Assembly: GCA_045805205.1 (NCBI GenBank)
Contig: JBJMLR010000009.1
Coordinates: 197,658-261,657 of the forward strand
Length of the DNA stretch: 64,000 bases
Reading direction: 5' to 3'
From: Bacteroidia bacterium
Lineage (GTDB): Bacteria > Bacteroidota > Bacteroidia > 2-12-FULL-35-15
Made by a program: the position numbers and the translations under genes. Positions 31,779-56,350 of the stretch are shown here, piece after piece. Each line of letters starts with the position of its first letter. The stretch's first letter is position 1. The notes below the pieces were generated by a model, which saw nothing but the letters and a program-made list of their open reading frames with translations, was not told where the DNA came from and searched no databases.

Positions 31779-31853
31779 AGTTGCGTTGACTCAGTTCAGA
31801 TATAATTCCCCTACCTAATTATCAAATCCTGATTATCACATTCTCTAATTATT

Positions 31854-32648: not shown

Positions 32649-32721
32649 GTTTTCAATAGGCCGCCCTTCGACTCCGCTCAGGGTGACGCATCACCCGGCT
32701 GCATAGTCACCGGTCAACCTG

Positions 32722-33558: not shown

Positions 33559-33686
33559 AAATACACAAAAAAACGCAATTTGTGAGGGTTGAAAGCCACC
33601 TAAAAAATGGGCATTTAACAGTTTTTGGAGAGCCTGTCAGCCTGTTTTTACTATATATTTGTGTAGAACATTCATAAGCTATTTCT

Positions 33687-36242: not shown

Positions 36243-36353
36243 GTAATACAGGTGCTCAACTAGGTTTGACTTAGCAGCTGAATAAACGCTTCTGGCCCGG
36301 TATGCATTTCCTTAGGCTATACAGCGAAGGAAATTGCCGGACAGAAAAGCTGA

Positions 36354-37838
36354 TCATAGAAAAGTAATCCCGACATGCTTCAGGTTCTTCCTGATCTTAC
36401 CGTTCAGCTCCGGCGCAGCTTCCGTTTTCAGGATCAGGAAGATGAAAATTCCTCCGACGATCGCGCTTCGTATCGCGATATCCGGGATCAAATGTCCTGT
36501 GTACGGAATTAGCATTCCGGGTGCAAGAGCGACTACGGAAATCAGCAATAACTTCAATGAATTAAGATCGTAAGGCTGCATTTTGTAAGTGACCTTCAGG
36601 AAAAGAAAGCGGAGGGAATTATTTGCAACCACCGTAACTGCCGTCGCAATTGCGGAGCCGGCGATTCCATATTTCGGAATAAAAATGAGATTAGCCGCCA
36701 CCACCAATCCTACCATCAGGAAAACAAAGAAAGCGTCAAAGCGGTAATACTTTGAATTTGCAATGATCACCTGGTTGATCCCCGTTGCCATTTCCACAAG
36801 ATATCCCGCACTCAGGATGAGAATCACATATTTGCCGGAAGCATACGCAGGAGGAAGCAGCTGCATGATATTATCAATATTGGCTGCGATCCCGATAAAT
36901 AAAAGAAGTCCAATGGTCAGCTGGCTGTTGCATGACTTCGCATAAAGGGAAGCGATCTCTCGGAGATCTTCTTTTTTGAATGCTTCCGCTACAATTCCGG
37001 TCATGATCCGGTAAAGTGAACGTGCAGGAATGAGAATGATCGTTCCGAACTGGAAAGCGATCCCGTAGATCCCCGCTTTGTCTTCTCCCAGCATGGAGTT
37101 CACCATGATCGCATCGATGTTCAGAATAATTGCTCCTGCACCGCCTGCCAGAATGGAATACACGCCCAGCCGGATCATTTCCGCTCTCAGCTCTGCACTC
37201 ATGAAGCCCCGGATCGGCCTGATATGCCATTCGCCCTGGCGAACGATAAAAGCGAGCAAAATGATGGTCGGCAGACAAACCAGTGAAATGTAGAGCAAAA
37301 TAAAAATTCGGAATTCAATGATCTTCAAGAAGTAAATAAGCAATAGCGCCATGATCAGTATGCGCTGAAGAAAATCTTTGCTGAATGAACCAATGACCGA
37401 GTTGTACGTCGCCCGGAGGTAGCTGTCGAAAATATTAAAAAATACAGTGAAGAATGTCAATGGCATCAGGTAAAAAAGATACGTGACGAACAGCGGGGAC
37501 TTTGCCTGGTTACGCACGATCAGCGATGGCTGAAGGAAAACGAATACGACATAACAGATCGCAAACCCGATCAGCGTGATCAGCAATGCATAAAACAGGA
37601 AGCCATGATGCCCCTTGTCCTTGTTGCGGAAGTAAGGAAAGAAACGGTTGGTGACCGAAGTAAAGCCGAGATTGGCAAATTGTGCGAAGAGCGCTGAGTA
37701 AGAAACAAGGATCCGGAGCACACCATTTTCTGATGGATTGAACAGGTGCGACATCCACATAACGGTAAGAAAACCAAGCCCGGCTCCGAGATAGGAGTAG
37801 ACCGCGTTACGCGTTGCTTGTTTTTCGATGATGCCCAA
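36354..37838 (-). CDS. polysaccharide biosynthesis protein / Wzx-like oligosaccharide flippase
   Basis: 494 aa with about 12-14 TM helices. N-terminus NAVYSYLGAGLGFLTVMWMSHLF..RILVSYSALFAQFANLGFTSVTNRFFPYF is of the Polysacc_synt family. It is a paralog of 50650..52113. Confidence 0.7.
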   Translation of the reverse strand: MGIIEKQATRNAVYSYLGAGLGFLTVMWMSHLFNPSENGVLRILVSYSALFAQFANLGFTSVTNRFFPYFRNKDKGHHGFLFYALLITLIGFAICYVVFVFLQPSLIVRNQAKSPLFVTYLFYLMPLTFFTVFFNIFDSYLRATYNSVIGSFSKDFLQRILIMALLLIYFLKIIEFRIFILLYISLVCLPTIILLAFIVRQGEWHIRPIRGFMSAELRAEMIRLGVYSILAGGAGAIILNIDAIMVNSMLGEDKAGIYGIAFQFGTIILIPARSLYRIMTGIVAEAFKKEDLREIASLYAKSCNSQLTIGLLLFIGIAANIDNIMQLLPPAYASGKYVILILSAGYLVEMATGINQVIIANSKYYRFDAFFVFLMVGLVVAANLIFIPKYGIAGSAIATAVTVVANNSLRFLFLKVTYKMQPYDLNSLKLLLISVVALAPGMLIPYTGHLIPDIAIRSAIVGGIFIFLILKTEAAPELNGKIRKNLKHVGITFL

Positions 37839-37844
37839 GTGCTT

Positions 37845-38885
37845 CTAGAAATGGTCTTTGCTAAGCGGTGTTCCTGCTTTCAGGTCTTTTGCAGCGGTTT
37901 TTCCGATCACCTGTTCCCAGTATCTGGGAGCCAACCCGGTTGCGGGCCGGATGATCCTGAGGTTGTCGCTGCTGAATGCTTCTCCTTTTTTAACGTCCTT
38001 AGAAACGAAGATCGAACGCTTAAATTGCATGCTCTTTTCTTCTGCCGGTAAAATGCCTTTCTGTATCACTCCCAGCGAAAGAAATGCGCGTTCCGTTTCT
38101 ACAACCAGGGAATGCAATTCTTCCGGTTCGAGGGAAAATGCGCTGTCAACACCACCGTCAGCTCTCCTCAGTGTAAAATGTTTTTCGATCACGCGGGCAC
38201 CCAATGCCACTGCCGCCACGGAAGCGCCTACACCCATTGTATGATCCGAAAGACCAGTAACACAATCAAATGTATTGATGAAATCGGGGATCGTGTTGAG
38301 ATTGGTATTCTCCGGTGTTGCCGGATAAGTGCTGGTGCATTTCAAAAGGATAATGTCCTTGCATCCCGCTTTTCTCAATACTTCAATACTCTCTGTAATG
38401 TCTTCACGGGTGGTGACGCCGCTCGAGATGATCACCGGCTTGCCGGTAGCAGCTACTTTTTTCAGCAGCGGGTGATGAGTGTTTTCGAACGATGCGATCT
38501 TATACATCGGAACATTCAATGTTTCCAGGAAATCAACAGCCGTTTCATCGAATGGCGAGCTGAATGCAAGCATTCCTTTTTCTTTTGCCCGGTCAAAAAT
38601 AGGCTTGTGCCATTCCCAGGGAGTATATGCCATTTTGTAAAGGTCATGCAGCTCTTTTCCGTTCCAAAGTGAATTCTTGTCTTCGATCGTGTAAGCGCCT
38701 TTCATCGTGATCGTATCGGCAGTATAGGTTTGCAGCTTAAGCGCATGCGCACCGGCTGCCGCTGCTGCATCCACGAGCTCCAGCGCGCGGTCCAGCGACT
38801 GGTTATGATTGCCGCTCATTTCAGCAATAATGAAAGGCTTGTGGTTCTTGCCTATTGTAATATTTCCAATTTTGATATTCTGCAT
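37845..38885 (-). CDS. pseI: NeuB-family nonulosonic acid synthase, pseudaminic acid synthase by context
   Basis: 346 aa. FIIAEMSGNHNQSLDRALELVDAA... (NeuB TIM-barrel) plus a C-terminal SAF/antifreeze-like domain. It is adjacent to pseG/H, pseF, pseC and pseB. Confidence 0.75.
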   Translation of the reverse strand: MQNIKIGNITIGKNHKPFIIAEMSGNHNQSLDRALELVDAAAAAGAHALKLQTYTADTITMKGAYTIEDKNSLWNGKELHDLYKMAYTPWEWHKPIFDRAKEKGMLAFSSPFDETAVDFLETLNVPMYKIASFENTHHPLLKKVAATGKPVIISSGVTTREDITESIEVLRKAGCKDIILLKCTSTYPATPENTNLNTIPDFINTFDCVTGLSDHTMGVGASVAAVALGARVIEKHFTLRRADGGVDSAFSLEPEELHSLVVETERAFLSLGVIQKGILPAEEKSMQFKRSIFVSKDVKKGEAFSSDNLRIIRPATGLAPRYWEQVIGKTAAKDLKAGTPLSKDHF

Positions 38886-38886
38886 A

Positions 38887-40374
38887 TTATGCTTTTTTTC
38901 TGAATAGTTTATGACTCGGAATCCCTTGCTCCGTCACTGTTTCCTCGTTTCCGAATCCTGCTTTTAAAAAGCTGTTGTAGGAAGCGTCGTTTCCGATCTT
39001 AATATAAGCTGTGATCGTCGCATCCGGATTCTTCGTCAGAAAATCATCACCGGCAATGCTCAGCATATCTGCCGCCAGACCTTTTCCCCTGAAGTCAGGA
39101 TCAACCGAGATCCCGATCACTGTTTCTTTTCCGCTTGTGTCGATCCGGACTTGTCCGACAGGCTTTTCAGCAGCATTCAGGAACAAATAAAAGAAACACG
39201 TTCCTGAAGACAGTTTTGCGTTGAACCATTTTACATGATCTTCGTATTTTACCTGCGACTGATTATATGATTGCGCTCTTACCAGCGGGTCATTTGTCCA
39301 GATAAAATAAAAATCGGTATCCGCCGGAGTGGCCATTCTGAAATGAAGCGGTTCCTTTCTCAGACCGGCGAATGCGGTTCTGAAACGCTCCGGTGACTTA
39401 CCGTCAATATACTTCGATTGCTGCCGGACCAGGTCGTTAAGGTCTTCGATCGCTAATTGTGAGAATTGTTCCTGAATTGCAGATATTGAAAGCAGATTCA
39501 GATCACCCAGGCTGATCGCGACTTTGTTTTGAATCAAGCCCCGGAGAATTCCTTTTTGATTGTCGGCTGTGTATCCACTCAGCAGGCCGATACCGGTTGC
39601 GCAGCATTCCATGGAAATGCTGCTGGCCGGACAAATTGCCACATCACATTTTTGAAGAAGGCTCACCAGCTCATCGGCGCTTATATCGAAGTGTTTGTGA
39701 ATTTTTACGGAAGAGCTTTTCGCAATGAGCTCATCGATCTTTCCCAGGTGCGGATTTGCGGCTCCCAGCATCAAATGAATTTCACCGATCCCCTGAATAC
39801 CGGTCAGTGCTTCACAAAACTTCTGCGTGATGTTATTTGCATCGGCAGCACCCATGCTGATGAAAACATTTTTTATGGCCGCGATCGCACGTATTTCTTT
39901 TTTCTCAAGGAACGGTGCTCTCAAAAGCGCGTAATCCGGTCCGAGCAGATATTTTGTATAGGGTTCGGCGGAATAATCCGATCTTTCAGCCGTTGCAGCA
40001 TGATTGATGATCATATCAGCCACATGATGCCAGGAATGCAGGTCATCGATCGCAACCAGCTTACATCCTTTTGCTTTGATCGTCTTCTGGTAATCGGTTC
40101 TGAATTCATATCCATCCAGCAATACAATATCGGATGGATCAAGAAAGCCCGCCAGGTTTTTTACATCCTTCTCAGGGTCCGTTTCTAAAGGCAGATGAAA
40201 AATAGTTTCTGTTATTTTATGAATAGCACGGATCACATGTTCGGATGGCTGCTGCACGGCAAACATGATCTGAAAATCATGTTTCAGCATATCTGCAAGC
40301 GCGAGGCTGCGGATGATATGTCCCATCCCGATAGCAGTGCCGCCGTCGGCCCGTATAACCAGCTTTGGTTTCAA
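38887..40374 (-). CDS. pseG: bifunctional PseG-like UDP-sugar hydrolase (N-terminal) fused to a GNAT N-acetyltransferase (PseH-like, C-terminal)
   Basis: N-terminus KLVIRADGGTAIGMGHIIRSLALADML resembles PseG. The C-terminal ~160 aa carry a GNAT core (GISVDPDFRGKGLAADML). Confidence 0.65.
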   Translation of the reverse strand: MKPKLVIRADGGTAIGMGHIIRSLALADMLKHDFQIMFAVQQPSEHVIRAIHKITETIFHLPLETDPEKDVKNLAGFLDPSDIVLLDGYEFRTDYQKTIKAKGCKLVAIDDLHSWHHVADMIINHAATAERSDYSAEPYTKYLLGPDYALLRAPFLEKKEIRAIAAIKNVFISMGAADANNITQKFCEALTGIQGIGEIHLMLGAANPHLGKIDELIAKSSSVKIHKHFDISADELVSLLQKCDVAICPASSISMECCATGIGLLSGYTADNQKGILRGLIQNKVAISLGDLNLLSISAIQEQFSQLAIEDLNDLVRQQSKYIDGKSPERFRTAFAGLRKEPLHFRMATPADTDFYFIWTNDPLVRAQSYNQSQVKYEDHVKWFNAKLSSGTCFFYLFLNAAEKPVGQVRIDTSGKETVIGISVDPDFRGKGLAADMLSIAGDDFLTKNPDATITAYIKIGNDASYNSFLKAGFGNEETVTEQGIPSHKLFRKKA

Positions 40375-40377
40375 ATC

Positions 40378-41430
40378 TTATTTTACAAGTATGATTTTAT
40401 GAGTTCCGGATTCATTTCCGGTATTTACGGTGACAAAATAAACCCCGGCCGGTTGAGCTGAAAGATCAATCATAGATTCTTTATTCTCCGAGTGCTTCCA
40501 GCCGACCTGGTTTCCCAGGATGTCGTAAATCAACACATCAAAGCCCGTAGCCTGGGTATCGTTCACCTTTATTCCGAAAACTCCGGAGGAAGGATTCGGG
40601 TAGATGTTAAAATTCGTCAGCGTCCCCGGCTCAGAAATCCCAACGTTGGTTGGCCCCAGGTAAATTGCGTTAATTTCAGCTGCATTCAGCAGCCTGTCAT
40701 AAATTCTGATGTCATCGATCTTTCCATGGAAGTCATACGATGAAGCTGCACATAGAGTTCCTGAGGATGTAAGCGTTGTTGCCGTTCCCAAATGAGCAGT
40801 TCCGGCCTGCATATTTCCGAGTGTGCCGGATGGCGGAAGTGCAGCTGAAATAGTCTGCATAACATTGTTCACATACATTTGTACACGGCCGAGACCTCCT
40901 GCGGTTCCATTTGTACCATCATACATCGCGACAACGTGATACCACATGCTCGTGTCGGTAACGCTGGTTGAGCCTTGTGCGTAAACTGCATTTCCCGTTC
41001 CCAGCGAACTGCTGTAAAGCAGCATGATTTTTCCGCCATAAACGCTGAGTGCAAATTGCTGCTGTGCTGATGAACAGGCTCCGTCAGCATCTTTTGTCAG
41101 AATGCCGCTTGCTGCAGCAGTAGCATAAGGTTTAATCCAGACAGAGATCGAAAATTTATTTCCTACCCCGGAAAATGCAGTATTAAGTACGTTCCCGAAA
41201 TCAACATAATCGCTTGATCCATTATAGAAATAAGCACAATTCGGATTGCCAAACCGATCGGTAGTGAGTGTGGCACCTACTACAGTTCCGTTAAGTCCGC
41301 TGCCGCTGTCGTCATTCGCATTTCCTGTAAAGGGATACGATGCGGAGAGTCCACTTCCAAGCGATATCTGCGCATTTGCTACGGAAAAAGTGATGCCCAG
41401 AAGCAGAATAAATAAGTAGATCTTTTTCAT
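40378..41430 (-). CDS. LamG/concanavalin-like jelly-roll domain protein with a T9SS C-terminal sorting domain
   Basis: Signal peptide. DDIRIYDRLLNAAEI is the typical LamG_3 ending. C-terminus NIYPNPSSGVFGI...GVYFVTVNT is a T9SS CTD. Confidence 0.55.
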   Translation of the reverse strand: MKKIYLFILLLGITFSVANAQISLGSGLSASYPFTGNANDDSGSGLNGTVVGATLTTDRFGNPNCAYFYNGSSDYVDFGNVLNTAFSGVGNKFSISVWIKPYATAAASGILTKDADGACSSAQQQFALSVYGGKIMLLYSSSLGTGNAVYAQGSTSVTDTSMWYHVVAMYDGTNGTAGGLGRVQMYVNNVMQTISAALPPSGTLGNMQAGTAHLGTATTLTSSGTLCAASSYDFHGKIDDIRIYDRLLNAAEINAIYLGPTNVGISEPGTLTNFNIYPNPSSGVFGIKVNDTQATGFDVLIYDILGNQVGWKHSENKESMIDLSAQPAGVYFVTVNTGNESGTHKIILVK

Positions 41431-41456
41431 GATGGTTGGATTAGTTGTTAGATTTA

Positions 41457-42290
41457 TTAAACCTGTTCAGGGACAAGTTTTATTATTTCTACATTTTTTT
41501 GTGCTGCCGTCTCCAATGCAGCGGAACTGTATTTTGATGCGCGAAGGTTGTCGAGCGTATCTTTCCTCTTTAGTGAATATTCATTGATATACCGATCAAG
41601 ATGACTTGAGCGCAAAGCGAACGTCATAAAAAGCGAAATGCGTTCAAACTGCTGGTCCTTTTTGAGGAATGCCGGAACCATTCCTTCACGTCCGGCCTTA
41701 TTGATCGAAAATTCAGGAAAGAATTTCAGCCGGACCGCATTTCCGCTATGAAGCGTCTTTAGACTCCAGACAGCTACGTCGCCGGCTTCATTACCGACAA
41801 GTACGGACTTCCCGTCGGGGTTTTTATGGCTTCCTACTTTAATTTTCAAGCCACCGCTGTAGTTTTTATGATCCTGCAGATAAATTCCAAGGCGGATCAG
41901 TGTATACTCTCCCTGCCAATCCGGTCCGCTCAGATCGGTACGGTCAATGCAGTCGCGGTGAAAACCACGCTGTCCTGTTCCGATCTGGTAGGAGCTATCG
42001 CCGAAATAAATGATGTTCGGGTCACCCAGTATTGTTCGTGCAATTTCCAGGATCCGTTCGTCAAGCAGGATCGGGTAAAGCTTTTCTTTGCTCAGCAGAT
42101 CACCTTTATTGTACTTCGCTTTTGTCGGAAGATTCGGCAGCTGGAAATCCAGCTTCTTGCTTTTATCGATCTCGTATTGTTCGTAGGCCAGCTTTCTGAA
42201 TTGCCCGATCTCATCGGCGCTGAAAACGTTTCGAACCAGCAGGTACCCGTCCTGATCAAACTTCTTTTTATCGATGATCAAATTGCTCAT
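41457..42290 (-). CDS. PhyH-family (phytanoyl-CoA dioxygenase-like) 2OG-Fe(II) oxygenase
   Basis: GFHRD (HxD) and a later H in ...LKTLHSGN. The length and pattern match PhyH-like hydroxylases. Confidence 0.55.
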   Translation of the reverse strand: MSNLIIDKKKFDQDGYLLVRNVFSADEIGQFRKLAYEQYEIDKSKKLDFQLPNLPTKAKYNKGDLLSKEKLYPILLDERILEIARTILGDPNIIYFGDSSYQIGTGQRGFHRDCIDRTDLSGPDWQGEYTLIRLGIYLQDHKNYSGGLKIKVGSHKNPDGKSVLVGNEAGDVAVWSLKTLHSGNAVRLKFFPEFSINKAGREGMVPAFLKKDQQFERISLFMTFALRSSHLDRYINEYSLKRKDTLDNLRASKYSSAALETAAQKNVEIIKLVPEQV

Positions 42291-42292
42291 GG

Positions 42293-43048: not shown

Positions 43049-43833
43049 ACGATGAGGTTCGCCGAATTAAGCGGAACCAGTCCAAAAACATCTGTTCTGA
43101 ACTCAAGGATCTCAATATTCTTTTTATTTTTTAAAACACTGACGAGGTTTCGGTTATAGTCATTGAGCTCTAAATATTTATTTCGCATCATGCCCAGGAG
43201 TGAATCGCGCTCCTCGATCACTGTCGGTTCAAAGTGAACAACATAGTTGATCTTTTCTTTTTGCTTTTCAAGACTTTCGATGATTACGGTCGCATCGGGG
43301 ATCTGTTCGATGCTGTGTGTTGTAAAGACCGTTGAATTAGGGCGGATGAAATCGTAATCTCCGCTTTCGTAATAATTGAATTCGCGGACATCCATCCCGA
43401 TCTTTTTTCCGATCGCCAGCGCATTTCTCGAATAATCACCTCCATAAGCTTTTGCTCCCAGCAGACTGAGATTGAAACCATAGCCGCATCCCAGTTCACA
43501 CATGTTCGAAGATGAATATTTTTTCAGCGTCGAGCCGATCAGCTCATAGTACTGTTTTCTTGCCTCCGCTACCGTTGTCTTGTAAATGTCGTCACCAATA
43601 GAAATGGTCATGTCGCCGGTTACGGGATGCAGGCCCGCCTGCTGAAATTCCATCGCTTTGTATGCTTCTGCATCAGGCAGGTCGCAGGCAAGCAATCGTG
43701 CATATTTATCGAGATTGTATTCATTCTCGACCTGCTGAACATCACGTTTTTTTTGAAACTCAGTCATTCCCAGTAATCGTTTGCTCCAGGGATTATTCTT
43801 GTTCAGGTACTCGTTTACTGAAATTGCTTTCAT
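43030..43833 (-). CDS. class I SAM-dependent methyltransferase
   Basis: Motif I ELGCGYGFN and a Rossmann-like pattern. Embedded in the pse cluster. Confidence 0.6.
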   Translation of the reverse strand: MKAISVNEYLNKNNPWSKRLLGMTEFQKKRDVQQVENEYNLDKYARLLACDLPDAEAYKAMEFQQAGLHPVTGDMTISIGDDIYKTTVAEARKQYYELIGSTLKKYSSSNMCELGCGYGFNLSLLGAKAYGGDYSRNALAIGKKIGMDVREFNYYESGDYDFIRPNSTVFTTHSIEQIPDATVIIESLEKQKEKINYVVHFEPTVIEERDSLLGMMRNKYLELNDYNRNLVSVLKNKKNIEILEFRTDVFGLVPLNSANLIVWKFKN

Positions 43834-45002
43834 TTGTTTTTTATATAGCTTAGGATAGTGCTGATCACACGGTCCTGGTCCTCATTGCTCAGTGAATGGT
43901 ACATCGGAATACTCAGGCATTTTTCATAATACGCCTCCGCCAGCGGATGATCGCCCTTTTTATGTCCGAACTGCTTGTAGTACGGCATGAGGTGAACCGG
44001 TACATAATGAACCTGGGCAAAAATATTTTCAGAGCGGAGATGTTCGTAAAGCCCCGGACGATCATCCACGCTGATCACATACAGGTGATAGGCATTTCCT
44101 TCGATCGAAGGAGCGGGGATCACTTTCGTTCCTTTAAATGCATTGTCGTAGCGCTTAGCGAGTTCGATCCTTCGCGCCAGATTCTCACCGGCTCTTTGCA
44201 TCTGTGATGTCCCGAGCGCAGCCTGAAAATCGGTAAGTCGATAGTTGTAACCGAGCTCCTGCATTTCATAGTACCATCCGCCCTGCGCAATTTCGTCGGG
44301 AGAATTTTTGTATTTCGTTGCATCCTTCGTGATACCGTGGGTGCGAAGCAGGTTGATCTTATCGTAAAGCGCTTTGCTGTTGGTTGTGATCATGCCGCCT
44401 TCACCGGTTGCGATGTGTTTTACAGGATGAAATGAAAAGATCGCGAGGTCGGCAAAATTCCCGTTCCCGCAGTTCTGCTTTATTCCTTTGCTGTCGGTAA
44501 AATATCCGCCCGGAGCATGACAGGCATCCTCGATGATCCAGCATCCGAAGTCATCTGCAAGCTTCCTGTATTCTTCAAGATTTACAGCATTCCCTGTAAA
44601 ATCAACAGGAATGATGCCGCTGAAGTAGCCTTTCGGATGTTTTTCAAGCAATGCCCGAACCTTTTTTATGTCGAGCAAAAACGTATCCGGATCGATATCG
44701 GCAAAATGAACTTCGCCTCCGCAGTAGCGTACACAATTTGCGGAAGCTGCAAAGGTGATAGGAGTTGTGATAACGCGTGTTCCTTCCTTTATGTCAAGCG
44801 CCATTGCGCAAAGGTGCAGCGCGGCCGTTCCATTGGAAAGCGCAATGGCATATTTCGCACCGGTGTATGCTGCAAAGGTCTTTTCAAATTCAGCGATTGC
44901 CGGCCCCTGTGTCAGGAAATCCGACCGCAGTGTTTTTGTTACGGCTTCGATATCCGCATCGGTGATCGTCTGGCGGCCGTAAGGAATAATTTTAGAGCTC
45001 AC
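43830..45002 (-). CDS. pseC: DegT/DnrJ/EryC1-family PLP aminotransferase, UDP-4-amino-4,6-dideoxy-N-acetyl-beta-L-altrosamine transaminase by context
   Basis: N-terminus IPYGRQTITDADIEAV...LTQGP...ALSNGTAALHL and the PLP-lysine region (HPVKHIATGEGG). Confidence 0.8.
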   Translation of the reverse strand: MSSKIIPYGRQTITDADIEAVTKTLRSDFLTQGPAIAEFEKTFAAYTGAKYAIALSNGTAALHLCAMALDIKEGTRVITTPITFAASANCVRYCGGEVHFADIDPDTFLLDIKKVRALLEKHPKGYFSGIIPVDFTGNAVNLEEYRKLADDFGCWIIEDACHAPGGYFTDSKGIKQNCGNGNFADLAIFSFHPVKHIATGEGGMITTNSKALYDKINLLRTHGITKDATKYKNSPDEIAQGGWYYEMQELGYNYRLTDFQAALGTSQMQRAGENLARRIELAKRYDNAFKGTKVIPAPSIEGNAYHLYVISVDDRPGLYEHLRSENIFAQVHYVPVHLMPYYKQFGHKKGDHPLAEAYYEKCLSIPMYHSLSNEDQDRVISTILSYIKNK

Positions 45003-45014
45003 TTATTTAAGAGA

Positions 45015-46031
45015 CTAGATTGAAAAAGTAGCGTCGACGTGTTCCCTGATCAGCTTGCGAAGATCGTCTACGGAAACCCATTCCTTGTTCTCGCCCGAAT
45101 TATACTGGAAGCCTTGCGGGACCAGCTTCGCATTGAAGCTTTTGACGTACTCATCGATCTTGAAATTGGGAACCTGCGGAAGGATCGCGTAGTATTTGCC
45201 CAGGTCGTAAGTAGTAAACGAATCGGAGGAAGTGATCATTTCTTCATGCACCTTTTCGCCGGGACGAATGCCGATGACTTCATGCTTACAATCGGGACCA
45301 ATTGCTTTCGCAACGTCTGTGATCTTGTAGGAAGGGATCTTCGGGACAAAGATCTCGCCGCCCCAGGCTGTTTCCATGGCGTGGAGCACCATATCGACAC
45401 CACCTTGCAGCGAAATATTGAAACGGGTCATATTCGGATCGGTGATCGGAAGCACACCTTCCTTTTTCTTTTTAAGGAAGAACGGGATCACTGATCCGTT
45501 GGAGCCCATTACGTTTCCATAGCGGACAACGGAGAATTTAATGTCCACTTTCCCGCGGATGTTATTCGCTGCGACAAACAATTTATCCGAGCAGAGCTTT
45601 GTTGCGCCATAGAGATTAATTGGCGCTGCGGCTTTATCGGTTGATAATGCCACGACATTCTTCACTTCGCTTTCCATGGCCGCATTGATCACGTTCTCAG
45701 CTCCCAATACATTTGTCTTCACACATTCCATCGGGTTGTATTCCGCGATGGGCACATGTTTCATTGCTGCTGCATGGATCACATAATCGATGCCCTTGAA
45801 TGCTTTTTTCAGGCGATCATAATCTCTTACATCACCGATGAAATAGCGGATGGCCGGATATTTCGTGTGGGAATATTCCTGGGCCATTTCGAATTGCTTC
45901 TGCTCATCGCGCGAGAAAATAACAAGTCGGCGTATATCCGGGAAACGGGATAAAATATTGCGGGTCAGGTGCTTTCCGAGTGATCCGGTACCACCTGTGA
46001 TCAAAATTGACTTTCCATTCAAATCCAGCAT
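45015..46031 (-). CDS. pseB: UDP-N-acetylglucosamine 4,6-dehydratase (inverting), PseB/FlaA1-type
   Basis: KSILITGGTGSLGKHL...VIFSRDEQKQFEM and YGATK (Y-x3-K). The length of about 338 aa is typical of PseB. Confidence 0.8.
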   Translation of the reverse strand: MLDLNGKSILITGGTGSLGKHLTRNILSRFPDIRRLVIFSRDEQKQFEMAQEYSHTKYPAIRYFIGDVRDYDRLKKAFKGIDYVIHAAAMKHVPIAEYNPMECVKTNVLGAENVINAAMESEVKNVVALSTDKAAAPINLYGATKLCSDKLFVAANNIRGKVDIKFSVVRYGNVMGSNGSVIPFFLKKKKEGVLPITDPNMTRFNISLQGGVDMVLHAMETAWGGEIFVPKIPSYKITDVAKAIGPDCKHEVIGIRPGEKVHEEMITSSDSFTTYDLGKYYAILPQVPNFKIDEYVKSFNAKLVPQGFQYNSGENKEWVSVDDLRKLIREHVDATFSI

Positions 46032-46101
46032 AATAAGGCTTTTTGTTAAAGCCCCAAAAATACGGAGAGTTTAGCGAAATAGCAAAGGTTTGGGAGGTCA
46101 T

Positions 46102-46146
46102 AAAAAATGAGTTAAAATTCTGATTGACAGAATTTTAACTCATTTA
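46102..46146 (-). terminator. rho-independent terminator downstream of the BNR/T9SS gene
   Basis: Perfect 15-bp inverted repeat atgagttaaaattct / agaattttaactcat with a 7-nt loop. The minus-strand transcript is followed by UUUUUU. Confidence 0.55.
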
Positions 46147-46178
46147 ATGAAATTCAATTAGGGAGGATGGAATTACGC

Positions 46179-47417
46179 TTACTTAATGATCAGCTTTCCT
46201 GTACCGATCACGGATGTTCCGTCGAACACCTTGTAAAGATAAACACCTGCGTCCAGTCCGTTTCTGTTAAGACTGAAGATCCGGTTTTTAGATGCAGCCG
46301 TTTTTACCAGTTTTCCGCTGATATCGAAGAGTCCAACCGATTGCGCATTGCTGAAAGTATAATTGCTGCAGTCGATAGTAGTTGTCTCGGAAAATGGATT
46401 CGGATAAGCAGTGAAAACGTTCGCTGTTGTTTCTTCCTGGATCCCGACATTCGAAGTATATTTTAAAATAGTTCCGTTGAGTCCGGAAGCATATCCCACA
46501 TTGGCATTCACCACGTCCACCCGGTAAAGGCGTGCGGTTCCGGGATACGATGTTGTCCAGCTTGCTCCGCCGTTTGTTGTTGTAAGGATCGTTCCTGTAT
46601 TCAATGAGATGTCTCCGCCAACCACAAAGCCGTGATTGGAGTCATAGAAATCGATGCCCGAATAAAAAGCGGTGGATGTGTCGGATACCGTAACACCTGA
46701 CCAGGTTGTACCCGCGTCTGCAGTTGTTCTGACGGTTCTGTTGCCCCCGATTACAAGACCAGTGTTGACGCCCGTAAAATACAAGTTCTGAAGAGGCGAA
46801 GTTGTACCGCTTACCAGAGTGGTCCAGTTTGACCCTCCGTTCGTCGTTTTGAAGATCTTGCCGGAGAATTCTACAGCATAACCATCTGTTGACGAAGTAA
46901 AATAAGTGCCGTAAATCGCGATACCTGCACTGGCTCCGGTAACCGTTGTGTTGGTCCAGGTTGTACCGCCGTCGGTGGTTTTCAATATCACCGAAAGCGT
47001 GCTGCCGCTTCCGCCGCCGCTAATAAAACCCGTATTGGAGTCGATGAAAAAGATGTGACGGAAATTAACACCGGTCACAGGCATTGTCATTGCTGACCAG
47101 GTGGCACCTCCATTTGTTGTTTTTAACGCCGTAAGACCGTTCCCCACCGCATATCCTGTATTTGCATCAACAAAAAGAATGTAATACAGATCCTGGGTGG
47201 TCCCACTGATTTGCCCGTTCCAGGTGGTTCCGCCATCGGTGGTCTTTCTGATGGTTCCTGCCGCGCCGCATACATAAACTGTATTAATGGTTGGTGCAGA
47301 GATTCCATTAAGACTGCTCGTTGTCCCGCTGACAAGCGGCGTCCAGGCAACCGTTTGTGCAGCAATATTTCCCGCGAACAGAACAGCTGCAAATAAAAGT
47401 ACTTTGATCTTTTTCAT
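46179..47417 (-). CDS. BNR/Ycf48-like repeat protein with a T9SS C-terminal sorting domain
   Basis: Six or more T(T/S)(D/N)GG.(T/S)W BNR repeats. C-terminus FTAYPNPFSETTTI...GVYLYKV... is a T9SS CTD. Confidence 0.6.
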   Translation of the reverse strand: MKKIKVLLFAAVLFAGNIAAQTVAWTPLVSGTTSSLNGISAPTINTVYVCGAAGTIRKTTDGGTTWNGQISGTTQDLYYILFVDANTGYAVGNGLTALKTTNGGATWSAMTMPVTGVNFRHIFFIDSNTGFISGGGSGSTLSVILKTTDGGTTWTNTTVTGASAGIAIYGTYFTSSTDGYAVEFSGKIFKTTNGGSNWTTLVSGTTSPLQNLYFTGVNTGLVIGGNRTVRTTADAGTTWSGVTVSDTSTAFYSGIDFYDSNHGFVVGGDISLNTGTILTTTNGGASWTTSYPGTARLYRVDVVNANVGYASGLNGTILKYTSNVGIQEETTANVFTAYPNPFSETTTIDCSNYTFSNAQSVGLFDISGKLVKTAASKNRIFSLNRNGLDAGVYLYKVFDGTSVIGTGKLIIK

Positions 47418-47473
47418 TGGAGTCGTTTTTTAGTGAAAGGGAGACGTAATAAAAATACAAATAAATCGGGAAT

Positions 47474-48148
47474 CTACCGGTTTTGAGAGTTAAACTCGCC
47501 GATATTCAGGAACTTTTCCTTGTTTTTTTTGAGCCACTCCAGGTCCTTATCCCACCATTTGAACTTCATAAGGAATTCGATCTGCTCCTGGCTGAAGCGG
47601 TATTTGATCACTTTTGCCGGAACTCCGCCTACGATACTATACGGTTCCACATCTCTTGTCACCACTGCGCCGGATCCGATGATCGCGCCATCACCGATTT
47701 TTACGCCGTAACGTATGATGGCATTATTACCGATCCACACATCATTGCCGATCTCGGTGGAAGGAAATTCATCAAAAAGATTTTTCTCCACGATCACCAG
47801 TCCTGACGATTGTCCGAGTGTAGAGTAGAAGAGAGGATGCGTTGAAACAAACTCAGCCGAGGGATGAGCTCCCATGCCTGTGCTGACATTCGGTCCGATA
47901 CAGGTGAACTTTCCGACCTTTGTATTGTAGAGCTGGGAGTTCCTTGCAACGTAACTGAAATCGCCCAGCTCGGAGTCGCGAAGCCGTGCGAACTTATATA
48001 CCGTATTGTAATTATTGAATTTGCAATTGCTTACTTCTGCCATGTACTCAAGGTGCAGATGCTGACTGCGATACTTCATTTCCAGCGACCATTTCCGGAA
48101 CAGCCATCGTAACCAATATGTGCATGGATTCTGAAACAGTGCGCGCAT
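47474..48148 (-). CDS. hexapeptide-repeat (CatB/XAT-family) sugar O-acetyltransferase
   Basis: Left-handed beta-helix hexapeptides: [35 protein letters not shown]. Confidence 0.7.
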
Positions 48149-48150
48149 TG

Positions 48151-49041
48151 CTATAATTTTTTTCGTTCAAAAGCATCTACAAAGGAAACTTCGCTTGCAT
48201 TATAAACCTTGCAGTTCTGCGAGCGGGCATACTTTTCAAGTGCAATATAACCATAAAATGTTTTTGCCCAGGTGTGAAAGATCTCGTCCATTCTGAATGT
48301 TTCCGTAAGGTGTGCACCCTTTGTGAATGGAATATATTTTACGGTCCTCACATCATCATAAAAATGGATGTGCTTAAGATGTAGCTTATTATGCTCGTCC
48401 AGATAAAGGCTTTCATGCCACGTATGATCAGCGCCAACCAGGTCCACTTCTTCAAAACCCATATTGATCGCCAGGAAAGTAGCTGCCACAAGTACATTTT
48501 GCGCTTGCGGCATCGCCATATTACGCCGGTAGAACCAATGCGCAATCCCGGCGAATCCTTTAAAAACGGTATAGTTGAAATACCGGAGCTCGACATTGCT
48601 GTTCTTTTTACTTAAGGCTGAAAATCGTTCGCTGCCGGAGGCCATCTGCGGAACAAAAAGGATCATTTTCCAGGTGGTGCGTTTTTCGATCGCATCGATC
48701 ACATCCAGTGTTGCCTTTTCATTACTTTTCCAAAAGCTGTAATCGAGGATCACGTAGAAGGAAGGCTTTAATAGTTCATATTCCGGGGTCAGGGAAAAGG
48801 AATTCACACAAAATAACGGAAGCGACGAAAAAAGTCCGGAATGTTTTTCCAGGGAGGCTTTCAGCGAAGGGCCGTTGCCAAGCACAATACATCTTTTTTC
48901 CTTCGTTAGGGGAATACGGTTCCTCAGCTTTGAACGTGCAGGTATTTTCAACAGCGAGATGCCGGTGTTGACCAGGCGAGTGAAAAAGCCTCCGGCTTCC
49001 TTGTATGTGCTTTCCGCTGACATGCGTTGCAAATGTAGCAA
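48151..49041 (-). CDS. DUF115 / Maf-like (motility-accessory-factor-like) protein, candidate nonulosonic-acid (pseudaminic acid) transferase
   Basis: The [10 protein letters not shown] motif matches the conserved G.GPSL of DUF115/MptE-like/Maf proteins. It lies in the pse glycan locus. Confidence 0.5.
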
Positions 49042-49123
49042 ATTATGTTTTTACCTGACTTGCCCGGACCGTCGCCTGTCGCTCGCCAAAATTCATTAAT
49101 ATTGTAATCTCACAGTATAGCAT

Positions 49124-49852
49124 ATGAACAGCCTCGAACGCATAACCAAAAAGATATTTCAGAATTTCGGTATCCTGATCCGGAAATACAATCCTGCTAC
49201 CAGCGAGGAGCTTCGCCGGATCCGCCTTTTCGGGCATTATGACATCGACCTCGTGTTCGATATCGGTGCCAATAAAGGACAATATGCCAAAGGGATCATG
49301 GATGCGGGCTATAAAGGCAGAATAGTTTCTTTTGAGCCATTGTCAGCAGTACATGCTATCATTGCTTCTGAAGCCAAGGGAAGCGCTACCTGGGAAGTGG
49401 CGCCGCGCTGTGCGATCGGTGCGAAAAAAGAGGAGATCGAGATTCATATTTCTGCGAATTCAGTGAGCAGCACTTTGCTGAATATGCTGGACTCGCACAT
49501 TGAAGGTGCCCCGGAATCAAAGATCATCGGGAAAGAAAAAGTACAGGTTTTACCGCTGGATGAGATCGGCGGCAGCTATATAAAAAATGCGAAGAACCTT
49601 TTTCTGAAGATCGATGTACAGGGCTTTGAGCAGGAAGTGCTGAAAGGAGCACAGCAAATGATCGCGAAAGCAAAAGGAATTGAAATGGAAATTTCCCTGG
49701 TTCCTTTGTATGAAGGACAGGATTGGCTGCTTCCGCAGATCCTCGCATACATGGAAGAAAAAGGATTCATCCTGACCAGCATCGTTCCTGCCTTCACCGA
49801 TCATAAAACCGGAAGGGTATTGCAGTGCAACGGGATCTTCTACCGGAAATAA
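49124..49852 (+). CDS. FkbM-family methyltransferase
   Basis: The DIDLVFDIGANKGQYAKG motif is typical of Methyltransf_21 (FkbM). Confidence 0.7.
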   Translation: MNSLERITKKIFQNFGILIRKYNPATSEELRRIRLFGHYDIDLVFDIGANKGQYAKGIMDAGYKGRIVSFEPLSAVHAIIASEAKGSATWEVAPRCAIGAKKEEIEIHISANSVSSTLLNMLDSHIEGAPESKIIGKEKVQVLPLDEIGGSYIKNAKNLFLKIDVQGFEQEVLKGAQQMIAKAKGIEMEISLVPLYEGQDWLLPQILAYMEEKGFILTSIVPAFTDHKTGRVLQCNGIFYRK

Positions 49853-50602
49853 ATGGACTTCAATCCGAAAATAAGCATCATCACCGTCGTTTACAACGCA
49901 CATGCGCTGATCGAAAGGACGGTAAGATCGGTGCTTTCACAAGACTGGAACAACATCGAATACATTATCATCGATGGCGGCTCGTCCGACGGAACACTTG
50001 AAATAGCAGAGAAATATTCTTCGCAGATCGCGCTGATCCATTCGGGTAAAGACAATGGAATTTATGATGCGATGAACAAAGGATTGAAGGATGCAACCGG
50101 CGACTATGTGCTTTTCCTGAATGCCGGTGATACTTTTTATTCGAAGGATGTGATCCGGAGAGTATTTGCAAACGGTGAAGCCGATGTGTATTATGGCAAC
50201 ACCGCCATTGTGGACAGCCAGGAGAATATCATTGGCGACAGGAGATTAACGCCGCCGGAAGTGCTTAACTGGAGAAGCCTGCGTTTTGGAATGTGTGTCT
50301 CTCACCAGTCGTTTATTGCGCGGCGAAAAATCTGTGAGCCCTACGATCTTGATTATAAGGTCAGCTCCGATATCGATTGGGTGATCCGCGTGCTGAAAAA
50401 ATCCGGGAGGATCCTCAATATACAGGGGTATATTTCCTGTTTCCTCGAAGGTGGTGTTTCAAACAGGCGGAGAAAAAAAGCGCTTGGGGAACGATTCAGG
50501 ATCATGAGCCGGCACTATGGCTTTTTCCGGACGTTAGTTAATCATATTTATATCTTGCTCCGTTATCCTTTTCATCGTTTCACAAGACGATCGATGACCT
50601 GA
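49853..50602 (+). CDS. family-2 glycosyltransferase
   Basis: ISIITVVYNAHALIERTVRSV...IIIDGGSSDGT (GT2 DxD). Confidence 0.8.
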   Translation: MDFNPKISIITVVYNAHALIERTVRSVLSQDWNNIEYIIIDGGSSDGTLEIAEKYSSQIALIHSGKDNGIYDAMNKGLKDATGDYVLFLNAGDTFYSKDVIRRVFANGEADVYYGNTAIVDSQENIIGDRRLTPPEVLNWRSLRFGMCVSHQSFIARRKICEPYDLDYKVSSDIDWVIRVLKKSGRILNIQGYISCFLEGGVSNRRRKKALGERFRIMSRHYGFFRTLVNHIYILLRYPFHRFTRRSMT

Positions 50603-50649
50603 GCAATTTTTGTCCGACAGTCTCGTTAATCCAGCACAAAAAAAGAATT

Positions 50650-52113
50650 TTGAATACGATCAGGAAACAGGGAATCAGCAATGCCATCATCATATACCTT
50701 GGTGCGGTGATCGGCTTTGTCAGCCTGATGTTCATTCAGCCGCATCTGCTGCAGGCAAAAGAGCTCGGACTTACCCGGATCCTCGTTGCTGCCGCCAGCC
50801 TTATTGCGACGGTACTTCCGCTGGGGATCAGCAGCGTCACCACCCGTTTCTTTCCTTATTTCCGCAACGAGGAAAAAAAGCATTTCGGATATTTCGGCTT
50901 TATGCTGCTCGTGGTGCTTGCGGGGACACTGCTCTCGGGGATCATTGTATATGTTTTTAAAAAGGCGATCATTGCGGAGTACATCGAACAGTCGCCGCTT
51001 TTTGTGGATTACTATGATCTTTTATTGCCGCTTGCAATGGTAATGGGGATCAACATCGCCTTGAATTCTTATTCCGCTTCTCTTTTCCGTACAACGCTGG
51101 TCACCTTTCTCGAAAGTATTTATTCCCGCCTTGCATTCGTCCTGCTCATCGTCCTTTATTATTTCCACTACCTGACGTTGAGCCAGTTCATCGGCTTTTT
51201 TGTTTTCAGTTATTTTATCCAGGCGCTTTGGCTGTGCTTGTATGTTTTCAGTATCGATAAACCTTCGATGATCATTGACCGGGAACAATTCCGGAAAGTG
51301 GGACTGAGCCGCTTGTTCGGCTATGGCTTGCTGCTTACACTCACGAATATCTCATCCTTGAGCATGAAATATTTTGATACCGTGCTGATCGGACATTACC
51401 TCAACCTGGAGGCAGTCGGTGTTTTTGCGGTAGGTGCATACATTTCGGTGATCATCGAGATCCCTTTGAATTCACTTGAGAAGATCTCCCATGCAAAAGT
51501 GTCGCAGGCCTGGGCAAACAATGATACGGAAAGCATTAAAGCTATTTATTACCAGTCGGTAAAATACCTGATGCTGATCGGCGGCTTGCTGGTGGTAGGA
51601 ATTATTACTAATGTGAATGAGCTGTTCATGCTGCTTCCTGAAAGTTATGCTCCTGCGATACCGGTTACGGTGATCTCCTGCATCGCGGCCTTTCTGAATG
51701 TTGCAACGGGTGTAAATACATCGATCATTTACAGCTCTTCGAAATACCTGTATGGGACCATTTTGCTGGCAATATTGCTGGTGCTTGCTGTCGGACTGAA
51801 TATGTGGCTGATCCCTCTGTATGGGATCATGGGAGCAGCGATTGCAACAGGATTGCTGGCGATCGTTTACAATGCAACGAAATACATTATTATCCTGGTT
51901 CTTTTTAAAATGCAGCCCTATGATCTGTCGAGCTTAAAGATCATTTTTGTGATCGCGGTTTCTTTTCTCACGGCCTGGCTGATGCCTTTGTTCAAAGATC
52001 CTGTTGTTACGATGGCTTGCCGGGCGGCGGCGACAACGGCAGTGTATTGCGGATTGGCTTATTTCCTTAAGATCGCGCCGGAGCTGCACAAATACATTCC
52101 GGGAAATAAATAG
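50650..52113 (+). CDS. polysaccharide biosynthesis protein / Wzx-like flippase (paralog of 36354..37838)
   Basis: 487 aa. N-terminus NAIIIYLGAVIGFVSLMFIQPHLL..RILVAAASLIATVLPLGISSVTTRFFPYF is near-colinear with the other flippase. Confidence 0.7.
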   Translation: MNTIRKQGISNAIIIYLGAVIGFVSLMFIQPHLLQAKELGLTRILVAAASLIATVLPLGISSVTTRFFPYFRNEEKKHFGYFGFMLLVVLAGTLLSGIIVYVFKKAIIAEYIEQSPLFVDYYDLLLPLAMVMGINIALNSYSASLFRTTLVTFLESIYSRLAFVLLIVLYYFHYLTLSQFIGFFVFSYFIQALWLCLYVFSIDKPSMIIDREQFRKVGLSRLFGYGLLLTLTNISSLSMKYFDTVLIGHYLNLEAVGVFAVGAYISVIIEIPLNSLEKISHAKVSQAWANNDTESIKAIYYQSVKYLMLIGGLLVVGIITNVNELFMLLPESYAPAIPVTVISCIAAFLNVATGVNTSIIYSSSKYLYGTILLAILLVLAVGLNMWLIPLYGIMGAAIATGLLAIVYNATKYIIILVLFKMQPYDLSSLKIIFVIAVSFLTAWLMPLFKDPVVTMACRAAATTAVYCGLAYFLKIAPELHKYIPGNK

Positions 52114-56231: not shown

Positions 56232-56350
56232 AGGATCGGATATGAATTCTACACGTAAATATAGAAGATTTTTGGATAAGAGAAGTAGAATACCGCCTTC
56301 TGCAATGGCATGTGTTTTTTCTGCATCCTCCTGGAAACAAAAGAGATCAA

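Follow-up and report, generated by a model that had tools for sequence, protein, structure and literature searches.

Pseudaminic acid (Pse) and legionaminic acid (Leg) are sialic-acid mimics that are best known from flagella and from the O-antigens of pathogens. In the phylum Bacteroidota they have, to our knowledge, been documented only on the O-glycan of Tannerella. Here we describe a Pse-type surface-glycan locus, with a candidate transferase of the DUF115 family and a YfhO-type membrane protein, in a stretch of 64,000 nucleotides (contig JBJMLR010000009.1; hereafter the window) from a Bacteroidia bacterium. The genes lie on a 262-kb contig of a metagenome-assembled genome (MAG), and the deposited NCBI proteins are MFL5764347-62. 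Fourteen of the 17 locus proteins that were looked up are singletons in their 90%-identity clusters, so the lineage appears to be poorly sampled.

Several described systems share features with this locus. In T. forsythia, a Pse or a Leg locus lies beside wzx and the O-glycosylation locus, and strains swap the one for the other (PMC5378307, PMC5420450); the Pse transferase of this species, Tanf_01245, is a GT-B/TagB-like protein of 445 residues (PMC5420450). The LFG locus of Tannerella and Bacteroides consists of metG, wzx and genes for variable glycosyltransferases, followed by genes for two conserved glycosyltransferases, and both the transferase and the ligase of Bacteroidota O-glycosylation are still unidentified (2025 review, PMC12871550). 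The PF01973 domain forms the catalytic domain of the flagellin nonulosonic-acid transferases Maf, whose CMP donors supply Pse, Leg, Neu5Ac or Kdo (bioRxiv 10.1101/2020.06.03.131540). YfhO proteins are GT-C glycosyltransferases that use undecaprenyl-phosphate (Und-P)-linked sugars outside the membrane for teichoic acid glycosylation (PMC12041528, PMC5836110). Streptococcal YfhO enzymes also glycosylate Ser/Thr-rich regions of exported proteins, and the Streptococcus mutans pgf locus embeds the genes of its substrate adhesins (PMC12041528). In a preprint of July 2026, YfhO of Bacteroidota was proposed in silico to be the missing O-oligosaccharyltransferase of this phylum (bioRxiv 10.64898/2026.07.27.740950).

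The region 33687–52113 of the window is one lineage-specific, hypervariable surface-glycan locus between conserved flanks (Table 1). Next to yfhO lies a minus-strand gene string from 49041 to 36354, encoding in this order DUF115, a hexapeptide acetyltransferase, a BNR protein with a type IX secretion system (T9SS) C-terminal domain (CTD), PseB, PseC, a protein of 267 residues, a cytidylyltransferase, a PhyH protein, a LamG protein with a CTD, a PseG-GNAT fusion, PseI and Wzx1. A divergent plus-strand string at 49124–52113 encodes FkbM, GT2 and Wzx2. Genes of the minus-strand operon overlap or are spaced by 1–26 bp, with the exception of 56 bp before the BNR gene (47417/47474) and 147 bp before pseB (46031/46179), and the GC content of the locus (44–48%) equals that of its flanks. 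Both boundaries are formed by housekeeping genes, on the left those for a short-chain dehydrogenase/reductase (SDR) and a 2-oxoglutarate (2OG)-Fe(II) oxygenase, and on the right those for a TPR protein and an M1 peptidase, which are kept in relatives. All genes named in an initial annotation of this DNA are present as tightly packed open reading frames (ORFs); the extent it gave to the locus holds for these genes, but left out yfhO.

We lean slightly towards a five-step route for this locus, leading from CMP-Pse through a lipid-linked glycan to transfer by YfhO outside the membrane. By their family assignments, PseB, PseC, the GNAT acetyltransferase, PseG and PseI would first convert UDP-GlcNAc to pseudaminic acid. 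Secondly, the cytidylyltransferase, which is of the SpsF type, would produce the CMP form, and the 267-residue protein, a predicted class I methyltransferase, would tailor the sugar together with the PhyH oxygenase and possibly also FkbM. Thirdly, as fold, motifs and genomic linkage suggest, the soluble DUF115 protein would move the CMP-sugar onto a lipid-linked acceptor that GT2 helps to build, and the hexapeptide acetyltransferase, which is of the CatB class, would O-acetylate the unit. In the fourth step Wzx would flip the lipid-linked glycan across the inner membrane, and in the fifth YfhO, as a GT-C enzyme, would transfer it to an extracytoplasmic acceptor, most probably Ser or Thr residues of exported proteins, as part of the protein O-glycosylation of the phylum, and less probably lipopolysaccharide (LPS) or another glycan.

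Composition of the cassette across Bacteroidota

Relatives of the DUF115 protein were sought in one genome per species (185,579 genomes) and are encoded by 314 of them; all 80 of those inspected belong to Bacteroidota. Cultured carriers among these 80 include Pedobacter puniceum, P. glucosidilyticus, Solitalea koreensis, S. longa, Fibrella spp., Fibrivirga algicola and an Arcticibacter sp. The locus represents a genetic solution that is different from that of Tannerella and far more widespread, with several carriers that are cultured and tractable.

The window proteins were compared by tblastn with 84 neighbourhoods of at most 20 kb, of which 43 have full 10-kb flanks. The gene for the CatB-type acetyltransferase directly follows that of DUF115 in 55 of the 84 loci, together with a Pse pathway, a Leg pathway or no sugar pathway at all, while GT2 is encoded divergently from or beside DUF115 in 46 loci and a Wzx in 43. 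Nonulosonic-acid genes are found within 10 kb of the DUF115 gene in 33 of the 43 fully flanked loci. YfhO, which often accompanies the cassette, occurs in two gene orders: in Pedobacter, Solitalea and Arcticibacter it is encoded beside GT2, and in the clade of the window convergently with Wzx1. Its count is a lower bound, with the window yfhO itself lying 12.8 kb from the DUF115 gene and thus beyond the fetched flank. In P. glucosidilyticus (L056), the order is YfhO-GT2-DUF115-acetyltransferase-Wzx, with no sugar pathway in between. Recurrence of this gene order in independent assemblies, e.g. L005, L006, L025 and L070, supports the contiguity of the genes.

The content between the acetyltransferase and Wzx genes is either a Pse-type or a complete legionaminic-acid pathway. 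In Pse-type loci, PseB is 66–90% and PseI mostly 64–90% identical to the window protein. In locus L010, by comparison, the LegB, LegC and NeuB models score 514, 548 and 486 bits (cut-offs 475, 420 and 400, respectively), and Leg-type loci also hold PtmE-like, LegG-like, PglD-like and NeuA-like genes. In the clade of the window, the backbone consists of carB, followed at some distance by the genes for SDR, 2OG oxygenase, YfhO and the convergent Wzx1, with identities of 62–90% across the last four. What follows this backbone varies: L085, in which the SDR, 2OG oxygenase, YfhO and Wzx1 are 62–89% identical to those of the window, has a Leg pathway and then the acetyltransferase (86% identity) and DUF115, and breaks off at its edge within the beginning of an FkbM gene; L086 has other amino-sugar genes after yfhO-wzx and no DUF115; and the L032 contig has genes for methylated deoxysugars at this site. 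In the closest relative (L087 and L003; YfhO 78% identical), this version is 31 kb long and encodes a pair of NeuB-family synthases, of which one is fused to a cytidylyltransferase. Judged by gene content, the pathway part of the cassette is swappable, and in the clade of the window yfhO-wzx anchors a hypervariable sugar region.

The fused synthase of the closest relative (JGI contig Ga0395905_0000003; L003 1–1240, L087 21293–22535) is a NeuB-cytidylyltransferase protein of 594 residues, encoded in addition to a separate PseI-like synthase, and this relative further has genes of the ATP-grasp, PIG-L, metallophosphatase and DUF6044 families. Its locus may thus make a second or a differently modified nonulosonic acid. 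In four loci with the same gene order as the window (L005, L006, L008 and L061), pseC is missing at about 11.6–13.5 kb (locus coordinates), and the gene for the 267-residue methyltransferase follows directly after pseB. Either the aminotransferase of these relatives is encoded elsewhere, or a different sugar is made.

The pathway to the activated sugar

Family scans were performed with Pfam and NCBIfam hidden Markov models, and equivalog status was judged by the curated cut-offs of NCBI. PseB, PseC, PseG and PseI exceed their equivalog cut-offs (Table 1), whereas their scores on the LegB, LegC and NeuB models are far too low; by this pattern the locus encodes a Pse-type pathway and not a legionaminic or neuraminic one. 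In particular, the synthase, with its NeuB and SAF domains, and the transaminase, which the initial annotation had singled out as the enzymes that might profile as Leg or Neu enzymes instead, both profile as Pse enzymes. Since these four enzymes are at equivalog level, the order of the chemistry up to free Pse should match that of Helicobacter pylori and Campylobacter jejuni. The locus differs from the pathway of these species in that a GNAT domain fused to PseG stands in for PseH and an SpsF/COG1861-type cytidylyltransferase for PseF, in that three to four tailoring enzymes (class I methyltransferase, PhyH, FkbM and CatB-type acetyltransferase) are interleaved, and in the absence of a flagellar context.

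The claim that all six steps to CMP-Pse are encoded thus stands for four steps at equivalog level; for the other two, N-acetylation and CMP activation, the assigned enzymes are a generic GNAT and a cytidylyltransferase that fails the PseF model, and their roles are plausible from sequence. The GNAT half of the PseG fusion matches Acetyltransf_3 (38 bits, residues 343–474). PseG and GNAT halves are both detected in 29 of the 84 loci, and in most of the Pse-type loci (among 24 related loci with a listed gene order) they are adjacent and co-linear. It is plausible that this GNAT is a PseH-like N-acetyltransferase.

Table 1. Features of the surface-glycan locus, in order of their position in the window
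Feature	Position	Strand	Evidence
YfhO-family GT-C membrane protein, 851 residues; candidate extracytoplasmic glycan transferase	33687..36242	+	convergent with wzx1
Wzx-like flippase 1, last gene of Pse operon	36354..37838	-	Polysacc_synt 30.5 bits (cut-off 28.2)
PseI, pseudaminic acid synthase	37845..38885	-	TIGR03586 485 bits (cut-off 340); NeuB_NnaB 299 bits (cut-off 400)
PseG UDP-sugar hydrolase fused to C-terminal GNAT	38887..40374	-	TIGR03590 205 bits (cut-off 153.55), residues 4-276
LamG/ConA-like protein with signal peptide and T9SS type-A CTD	40378..41430	-	Laminin_G_3 and Por_Secre_tail
PhyH-type Fe(II)/2-oxoglutarate oxygenase, presumed tailoring enzyme	41457..42290	-	PF05721, E 6e-10
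SpsF-type cytidylyltransferase, 245 residues	42293..43030	-	CTP_transf_3 88 bits
Class I SAM-dependent methyltransferase (predicted), 267 residues	43030..43833	-	ELGCGYG motif and predicted fold
PseC aminotransferase	43830..45002	-	TIGR03588 462 bits (cut-off 423.5); LegC model 213 bits (cut-off 420)
PseB, inverting UDP-GlcNAc 4,6-dehydratase/5-epimerase	45015..46031	-	TIGR03589 511 bits (cut-off 407.75); LegB model 75 bits
Possible Bacteroidota -7 promoter element TAnnTTTG (weak)	46055..46062	-	pattern match, 24 bp upstream of pseB
BNR/Ycf48-like beta-propeller with signal peptide and T9SS type-A CTD	46179..47417	-	PSII_BNR and Por_Secre_tail
CatB/Vat-class (xenobiotic-type) hexapeptide acetyltransferase	47474..48148	-	Hexapep
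DUF115/MptE-like protein, 290 residues; candidate CMP-nonulosonic-acid transferase	48151..49023	-	PF01973 38.1 bits (cut-off 34.6)
FkbM-family methyltransferase, first gene of divergent operon	49124..49852	+	PF05050 and TIGR01444
GT2 glycosyltransferase, 249 residues	49853..50602	+	Glycos_transf_2 101 bits; no hydrophobic segment
Wzx-like flippase 2	50650..52113	+	Polysacc_synt 28.6 bits (cut-off 28.2) and Polysacc_synt_3

The cytidylyltransferase had been described as pseF-like, a label that should be replaced, as the protein fails the PseF equivalog and is of the SpsF/COG1861 type. Its start was placed at the ATG at 43030, matching the deposited NCBI protein (the ORF runs 42293–43048); the JGI annotation names it SpsF (COG1861-type), and the closest solved relative is an uncharacterised cytidylyltransferase (6oew, E 1.3e-40). 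A cytidylyltransferase of this type was found in 23 of the 84 loci compared, each time with a Pse-type PseB or on a short contig fragment, and in none of the Leg-type loci identified among them. It may be the CMP-Pse synthetase, judging from this distribution. In Bacillus subtilis, spsF is genetically required for displaying legionaminic acid, at a point where this sugar has already been made (PMC7439481), which fits a CMP-activating role for the SpsF type. The T. forsythia "PseF" is likewise weak against C. jejuni PseF (bit score 37, with 37% identity over the aligned stretch) and is inactive on Pse5,7Ac2 (PMC5378307).

The 267-residue protein has no Pfam or NCBIfam match. Its AlphaFold model (pLDDT 95.5) matched 802 PDB entries at E<=1e-3 in Foldseek, and the 50 top-ranked of these matches are all methyltransferases, including the sugar C-methyltransferases KijD1 and MtmC. 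Together with the ELGCGYG motif, this class I methyltransferase fold bears out the assignment as a SAM methyltransferase, though there is no Pfam family. The family is conserved at 44–75% identity. Members with 46–48% identity are also encoded by MAGs that bear the labels Syntrophomonas sp. and Microcoleus sp., so the family is not restricted to Bacteroidota. The best solved relatives of the PhyH protein are ectoine hydroxylases; it occurs together with the SpsF-type cytidylyltransferase in Pse-type loci (23/84), and a literature search for a link between PhyH and pseudaminic acid returned nothing relevant. An FkbM gene is found in one third of the loci (28/84). For the hexapeptide acetyltransferase, the best solved relatives are the O-acetyltransferases CatB and Vat (E 1e-29), and Leg-type loci encode a PglD-like enzyme of their own as well. 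We considered this acetyltransferase as a substitute for PseH or LegH and rejected the idea, as it occurs with Pse, with Leg and also without nonulosonic-acid genes. The nearest named model for GT2 is WcaE, with 104 bits, far under the cut-off of that model. For PhyH, the hexapeptide acetyltransferase, FkbM, GT2, the two Wzx-like proteins and the two CTD-bearing proteins, the family scans agree with the initial annotation.

DUF115, YfhO and the fate of the glycan

The start of the DUF115 protein was placed at the ATG at 49023, following a deposited NCBI homologue of 290 residues (the ORF spans 48151–49041). An AlphaFold model of the family (pLDDT 87) has Magnetospirillum Maf (5mu5) as its top Foldseek match, with an E of 7.5e-6, a probability of 1.0 and 12% identity over the structural alignment; next come the archaeal kinase MptE and the human sialyltransferases ST8SiaIII and ST6GalNAc2. 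When a profile of 38 family members was searched against all PDB sequences, the sole family found was C. jejuni Cst-II (GT42; 1ro7), at a marginal E of 0.004–0.02, in an alignment of 158 residues that includes the GNGPSLK and G-x-D motifs. Three His residues are invariant in the family (H200, H203 and H220). The alignment with Cst-II ends before the region of its catalytic base, which we take to be His188. No hydrophobic segment could be identified from hydropathy. Single-sequence PDB searches with the DUF115 protein, the 267-residue protein and YfhO gave nothing useful, and a literature search for Maf_flag10 in Bacteroidetes gave nothing relevant.

The earlier label of a DUF115/Maf-like putative transferase is upheld by the PF01973 match and by Maf as the best fold match. 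On the basis of the model and profile matches, and of the genomic linkage of DUF115 with CMP-nonulosonic-acid pathways, the protein resembles a single-domain nonulosonic-acid transferase of the Maf/Cst-II (GT42) kind. Its size and layout resemble those of Cst-II, whose acceptor is a glycolipid, more than those of Maf, which with 632 residues is much longer and has N- and C-terminal flanking domains that are missing here. The organism, moreover, is not flagellated, and no flagellar genes are present in the window. These differences bear on the possibility that DUF115 works like Maf and uses CMP-Pse directly to O-glycosylate specific cytoplasmic proteins, such as the co-encoded LamG and BNR cargo before export, with Wzx, GT2 and YfhO belonging to another pathway. 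Such a role would agree with the Maf fold and the PF01973 domain, and with cargo proteins that are rich in Ser and Thr (19–25%) and co-transcribed with DUF115. We nevertheless regard it as highly improbable: throughout the phylum DUF115 is tightly linked to GT2, Wzx and YfhO, which argues for a lipid-linked route, most cassettes have no cargo genes, and the cargo carries Sec signal peptides, through which export of a protein that is already glycosylated is not expected.

YfhO, the presumed last enzyme of the favoured lipid-linked route, has about 12–13 transmembrane segments according to hydropathy, with a large soluble stretch at 560–826 and a final transmembrane segment; in this predicted topology the invariant D40 lies in the loop after the first transmembrane segment, probably the first outer loop. 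All seven aligned orthologues match the YfhO model (best E 1.9e-14), most close homologues carry a precomputed PF09586 domain, and NCBI calls some of them YfhO family protein. The protein has at least 7,280 related clusters, and a profile of its orthologues found nothing in the PDB. Of the two flippases, Wzx1 (NCBI name polysaccharide biosynthesis protein) has about nine or more hydrophobic segments, and its orthologues (36–76% identity) close the nonulosonic-acid operon in 43 of the 84 loci. Wzx2 (NCBI name oligosaccharide flippase) has true orthologues (54–74% identity) only in the clade of the window, and appears to be about 30% identical to Wzx1, as estimated from shared flippase-gene matches in related loci.

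GT2 and YfhO genes also share a locus in the known systems of a GT-A enzyme and YfhO (CsbB/YfhO, GtrB/PgtC2 and the streptococcal PgfS/PgfM1), and the secreted-protein genes embedded here recall the substrate adhesins of the S. mutans pgf locus. These systems, however, use a single hexose or HexNAc on Und-P and flippases of the GtrA type, whereas the flippases of the present locus are of the Wzx type, its GT2 is soluble and WcaE-like, and its nonulosonic-acid pathway comes with a dedicated candidate transferase. With the Bacteroidota YfhO of the preprint, compared at the level of the Pfam family, the window protein shares multiple transmembrane segments, the phylum and, through the matches of its orthologues, probably PF09586. 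The gene context differs, as yfhO of gut Bacteroidales lies beside sahH or mtnN-luxS and here beside wzx and a variable sugar region.

Instead of a protein, the Pse unit might decorate a lipid-anchored glycan, such as the core or O-unit of LPS, a polymer resembling a capsule or the glycolipid anchor of T9SS cargo, with YfhO acting as it does on teichoic acids (PMC12041528, PMC5836110). O-antigens and capsules often contain Pse or Leg, the size and motifs of DUF115 are nearest to Cst-II, which is a lipooligosaccharide sialyltransferase, and in the closest clade the locus contains or adjoins T9SS cargo genes. We consider this nonetheless unlikely. No family match for Wzy, Wzz or an initiating phosphoglycosyl transferase was found in the scanned window ORFs (long, non-nested ORFs of >=150 residues), in agreement with the earlier description of a Wzx-type locus without Wzy or Wzz, and none of the three belongs to the families found recurrently across the 84 loci; O-antigen ligase and export genes are likewise absent from the window and from these recurring families. 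There is also no tie to lipid A or core genes, the lone LPS-related gene of the window being lptF/G at 6610–7686, 26 kb away. If the glycan did go to LPS or another lipid, the locus would encode an ordinary, though new, decoration system.

Several points weigh against the favoured transfer of a lipid-linked, Pse-containing glycan by YfhO. The locus is known from the genes of an uncultured MAG alone, and at the start of the route the GNAT half reaches only 26 bits on the PseH model TIGR03585 (cut-off 93) and the cytidylyltransferase 19 bits on the PseF equivalog TIGR03584 (cut-off 205.7). GT2 has no membrane segment and resembles chain-extending WcaE-like enzymes rather than Und-P-sugar synthases. 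In 10 of the 43 fully flanked DUF115 loci there are no nonulosonic-acid genes within 10 kb, and loci of the Fibrella group have neither GT2 nor YfhO within this distance. The window YfhO scores 25.3 bits on the Pfam YfhO model, just under the gathering score of 28.5, and the known YfhO enzymes move single sugars from Und-P, not oligosaccharides. Porphyromonas gingivalis is an O-glycosylating species. YfhO is absent from it, and the role of YfhO as an oligosaccharyltransferase is a prediction of the preprint (bioRxiv 10.64898/2026.07.27.740950).

Since the locus is anchored on yfhO, the predicted O-oligosaccharyltransferase, the idea of a protein O-glycan nevertheless gains an argument. We put forward, as a tentative broader proposal, that the yfhO-wzx region corresponds, in environmental Bacteroidota, to the outer-glycan locus of the general protein O-glycosylation system, that its linkage to yfhO in two independent gene orders would support YfhO as the O-oligosaccharyltransferase or ligase, and that DUF115, a "mini-Maf", would represent a new family of nonulosonic-acid transferases acting on lipid-linked glycans and providing O-glycans with Pse or Leg caps well beyond Tannerella. 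The linkage to yfhO bears on the 15-year question of which enzyme is the Bacteroidota O-oligosaccharyltransferase, and a nonulosonic acid in cultured carriers would be a distinctive read-out for the YfhO proposal. DUF115 is a candidate transferase that is new to characterisation, and the pathway module that accompanies it appears exchangeable.

Comparison with Tannerella, embedded cargo and neighbouring genes

The initial annotation had likened the locus to that of T. forsythia, and the analogy holds in part. Both are Bacteroidota loci with a Pse pathway by wzx and with exchange of Pse and Leg at one site (PMC5378307, PMC5420450, PMC6120980). The type of transferase is different, since T. forsythia uses the GT-B/TagB-like Tanf_01245 and no such domain occurs in any protein of the locus, which instead encodes the GT42-related DUF115 protein of 290 residues; a YfhO gene, furthermore, is present here. 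The hallmarks of the LFG locus are missing as well: wzx genes are present, but no tRNA-synthetase family match that could represent metG was found in the scanned ORFs. Only one GT2 and DUF115 are encoded in the 33.7–52.1 kb region, without a long series of glycosyltransferases, and no counterpart of the two conserved terminal glycosyltransferases was recognised, a pair for which no search by sequence was made.

In its literal form, in which the locus is a counterpart of the Tannerella/Bacteroides LFG locus, modified Pse caps the protein O-glycan and the embedded cargo is among the substrates, the earlier model thus seems doubtful to us. The Pse/Leg swap seen among T. forsythia strains (PMC5378307, PMC5420450) and the adjacent YfhO as a predicted oligosaccharyltransferase speak for it, as do the methyl- and acetyltransferases, which match the decorated O-glycans of the phylum (PMC12871550). 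Apart from the differences in gene content, the embedded cargo speaks against it: the canonical D(S/T)(A/I/L/V/M/T) site is absent from both the LamG and the BNR protein, which contain a single DTS each, and most versions of the cassette lack cargo genes.

The LamG gene is packed within the operon (gaps of 26 and 3 bp), and the only cassettes with a LamG homologue are those of L001/L002 (a single arrangement, present on two contigs) and of L014. BNR homologues (41–54% identity) lie in or beside the cassette at varying positions in 10 of the 84 loci, all of the closest clade; homologues of the LamG and BNR families together are found near the cassette in L001, L003, L014, L016, L020, L021, L023, L033 and L039. 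L005 and L006 have near-identical synteny with both cargo genes missing. The window contains five T9SS CTD genes in 64 kb, about one per 13 kb. Because such genes are dense, and the two embedded ones encode no canonical site and are linked to the cassette in the closest clade only, the cargo genes are weak evidence, and the statement that embedded T9SS cargo fits an O-glycan model loses its force. The embedded cargo was therefore not used as predicted substrates of general O-glycosylation, lacking as it does the canonical site. The association of cargo with the cassette may be real, though it is neither universal nor explained.

The remaining three genes for proteins with a type-A CTD are found elsewhere in the window (12240–13883, 14343–16211 and 56312–57928), and one of these proteins has PKD, cohesin and dockerin-like domains. 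In L086 (19156–22535), the yfhO-wzx locus is directly followed by a PorP/SprF gene and a gene for an SprB-like gliding adhesin of 2466 residues, a further case of T9SS-related genes next to yfhO-wzx.

The possible -7 element upstream of pseB has counterparts with the pattern TAnnTTTG just upstream of yfhO (33654–33661, plus strand) and of the DUF115 ATG (49030–49037, minus strand). The pattern occurs 49 times in the window against 46.7 expected, i.e. at chance level, and the positions alone are suggestive. A scan for sigma-70 promoters and terminators gave results near chance, with a model that does not cover Bacteroidota promoters.

Directly upstream of yfhO, at 31854–33558, lie the genes for the SDR and for the 2OG-Fe(II) oxygenase, the latter with a faint Ofd1 C-terminal domain. 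Both are kept at 77–90% identity in L085 and L086, and the same families are found in L087 and on the L032 contig. We left them out of the locus as conserved neighbours, as nothing ties them to glycan synthesis. Further upstream, between carB (18898–21714) and the SDR gene (31854–32648), the stretch 22000–31800 has a low GC content of 33–42%, compared to about 46% elsewhere. In L085 and L086 there are only about 2–2.5 kb between carB and the SDR gene, so this stretch appears to be an insertion of about 8 kb in the window. Most of its ORFs have no Pfam match. The ORF at 24858–26045 has a weak Swt1-like HEPN match and corresponds to the PADLOC candidate defence protein PDC-M34B (E 2.6e-10), and two AHSA1-domain genes at 27203–28396 are present as the same pair in L087. 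On the other side of the locus, 8.5 kb from wzx2, the gene at 60567–62522 encodes a protein of 651 residues with GT2 and CoA_binding_3 domains and no Bac_transf domain, a homologue of which is encoded about 10 kb from the DUF115 gene in L001/L002.

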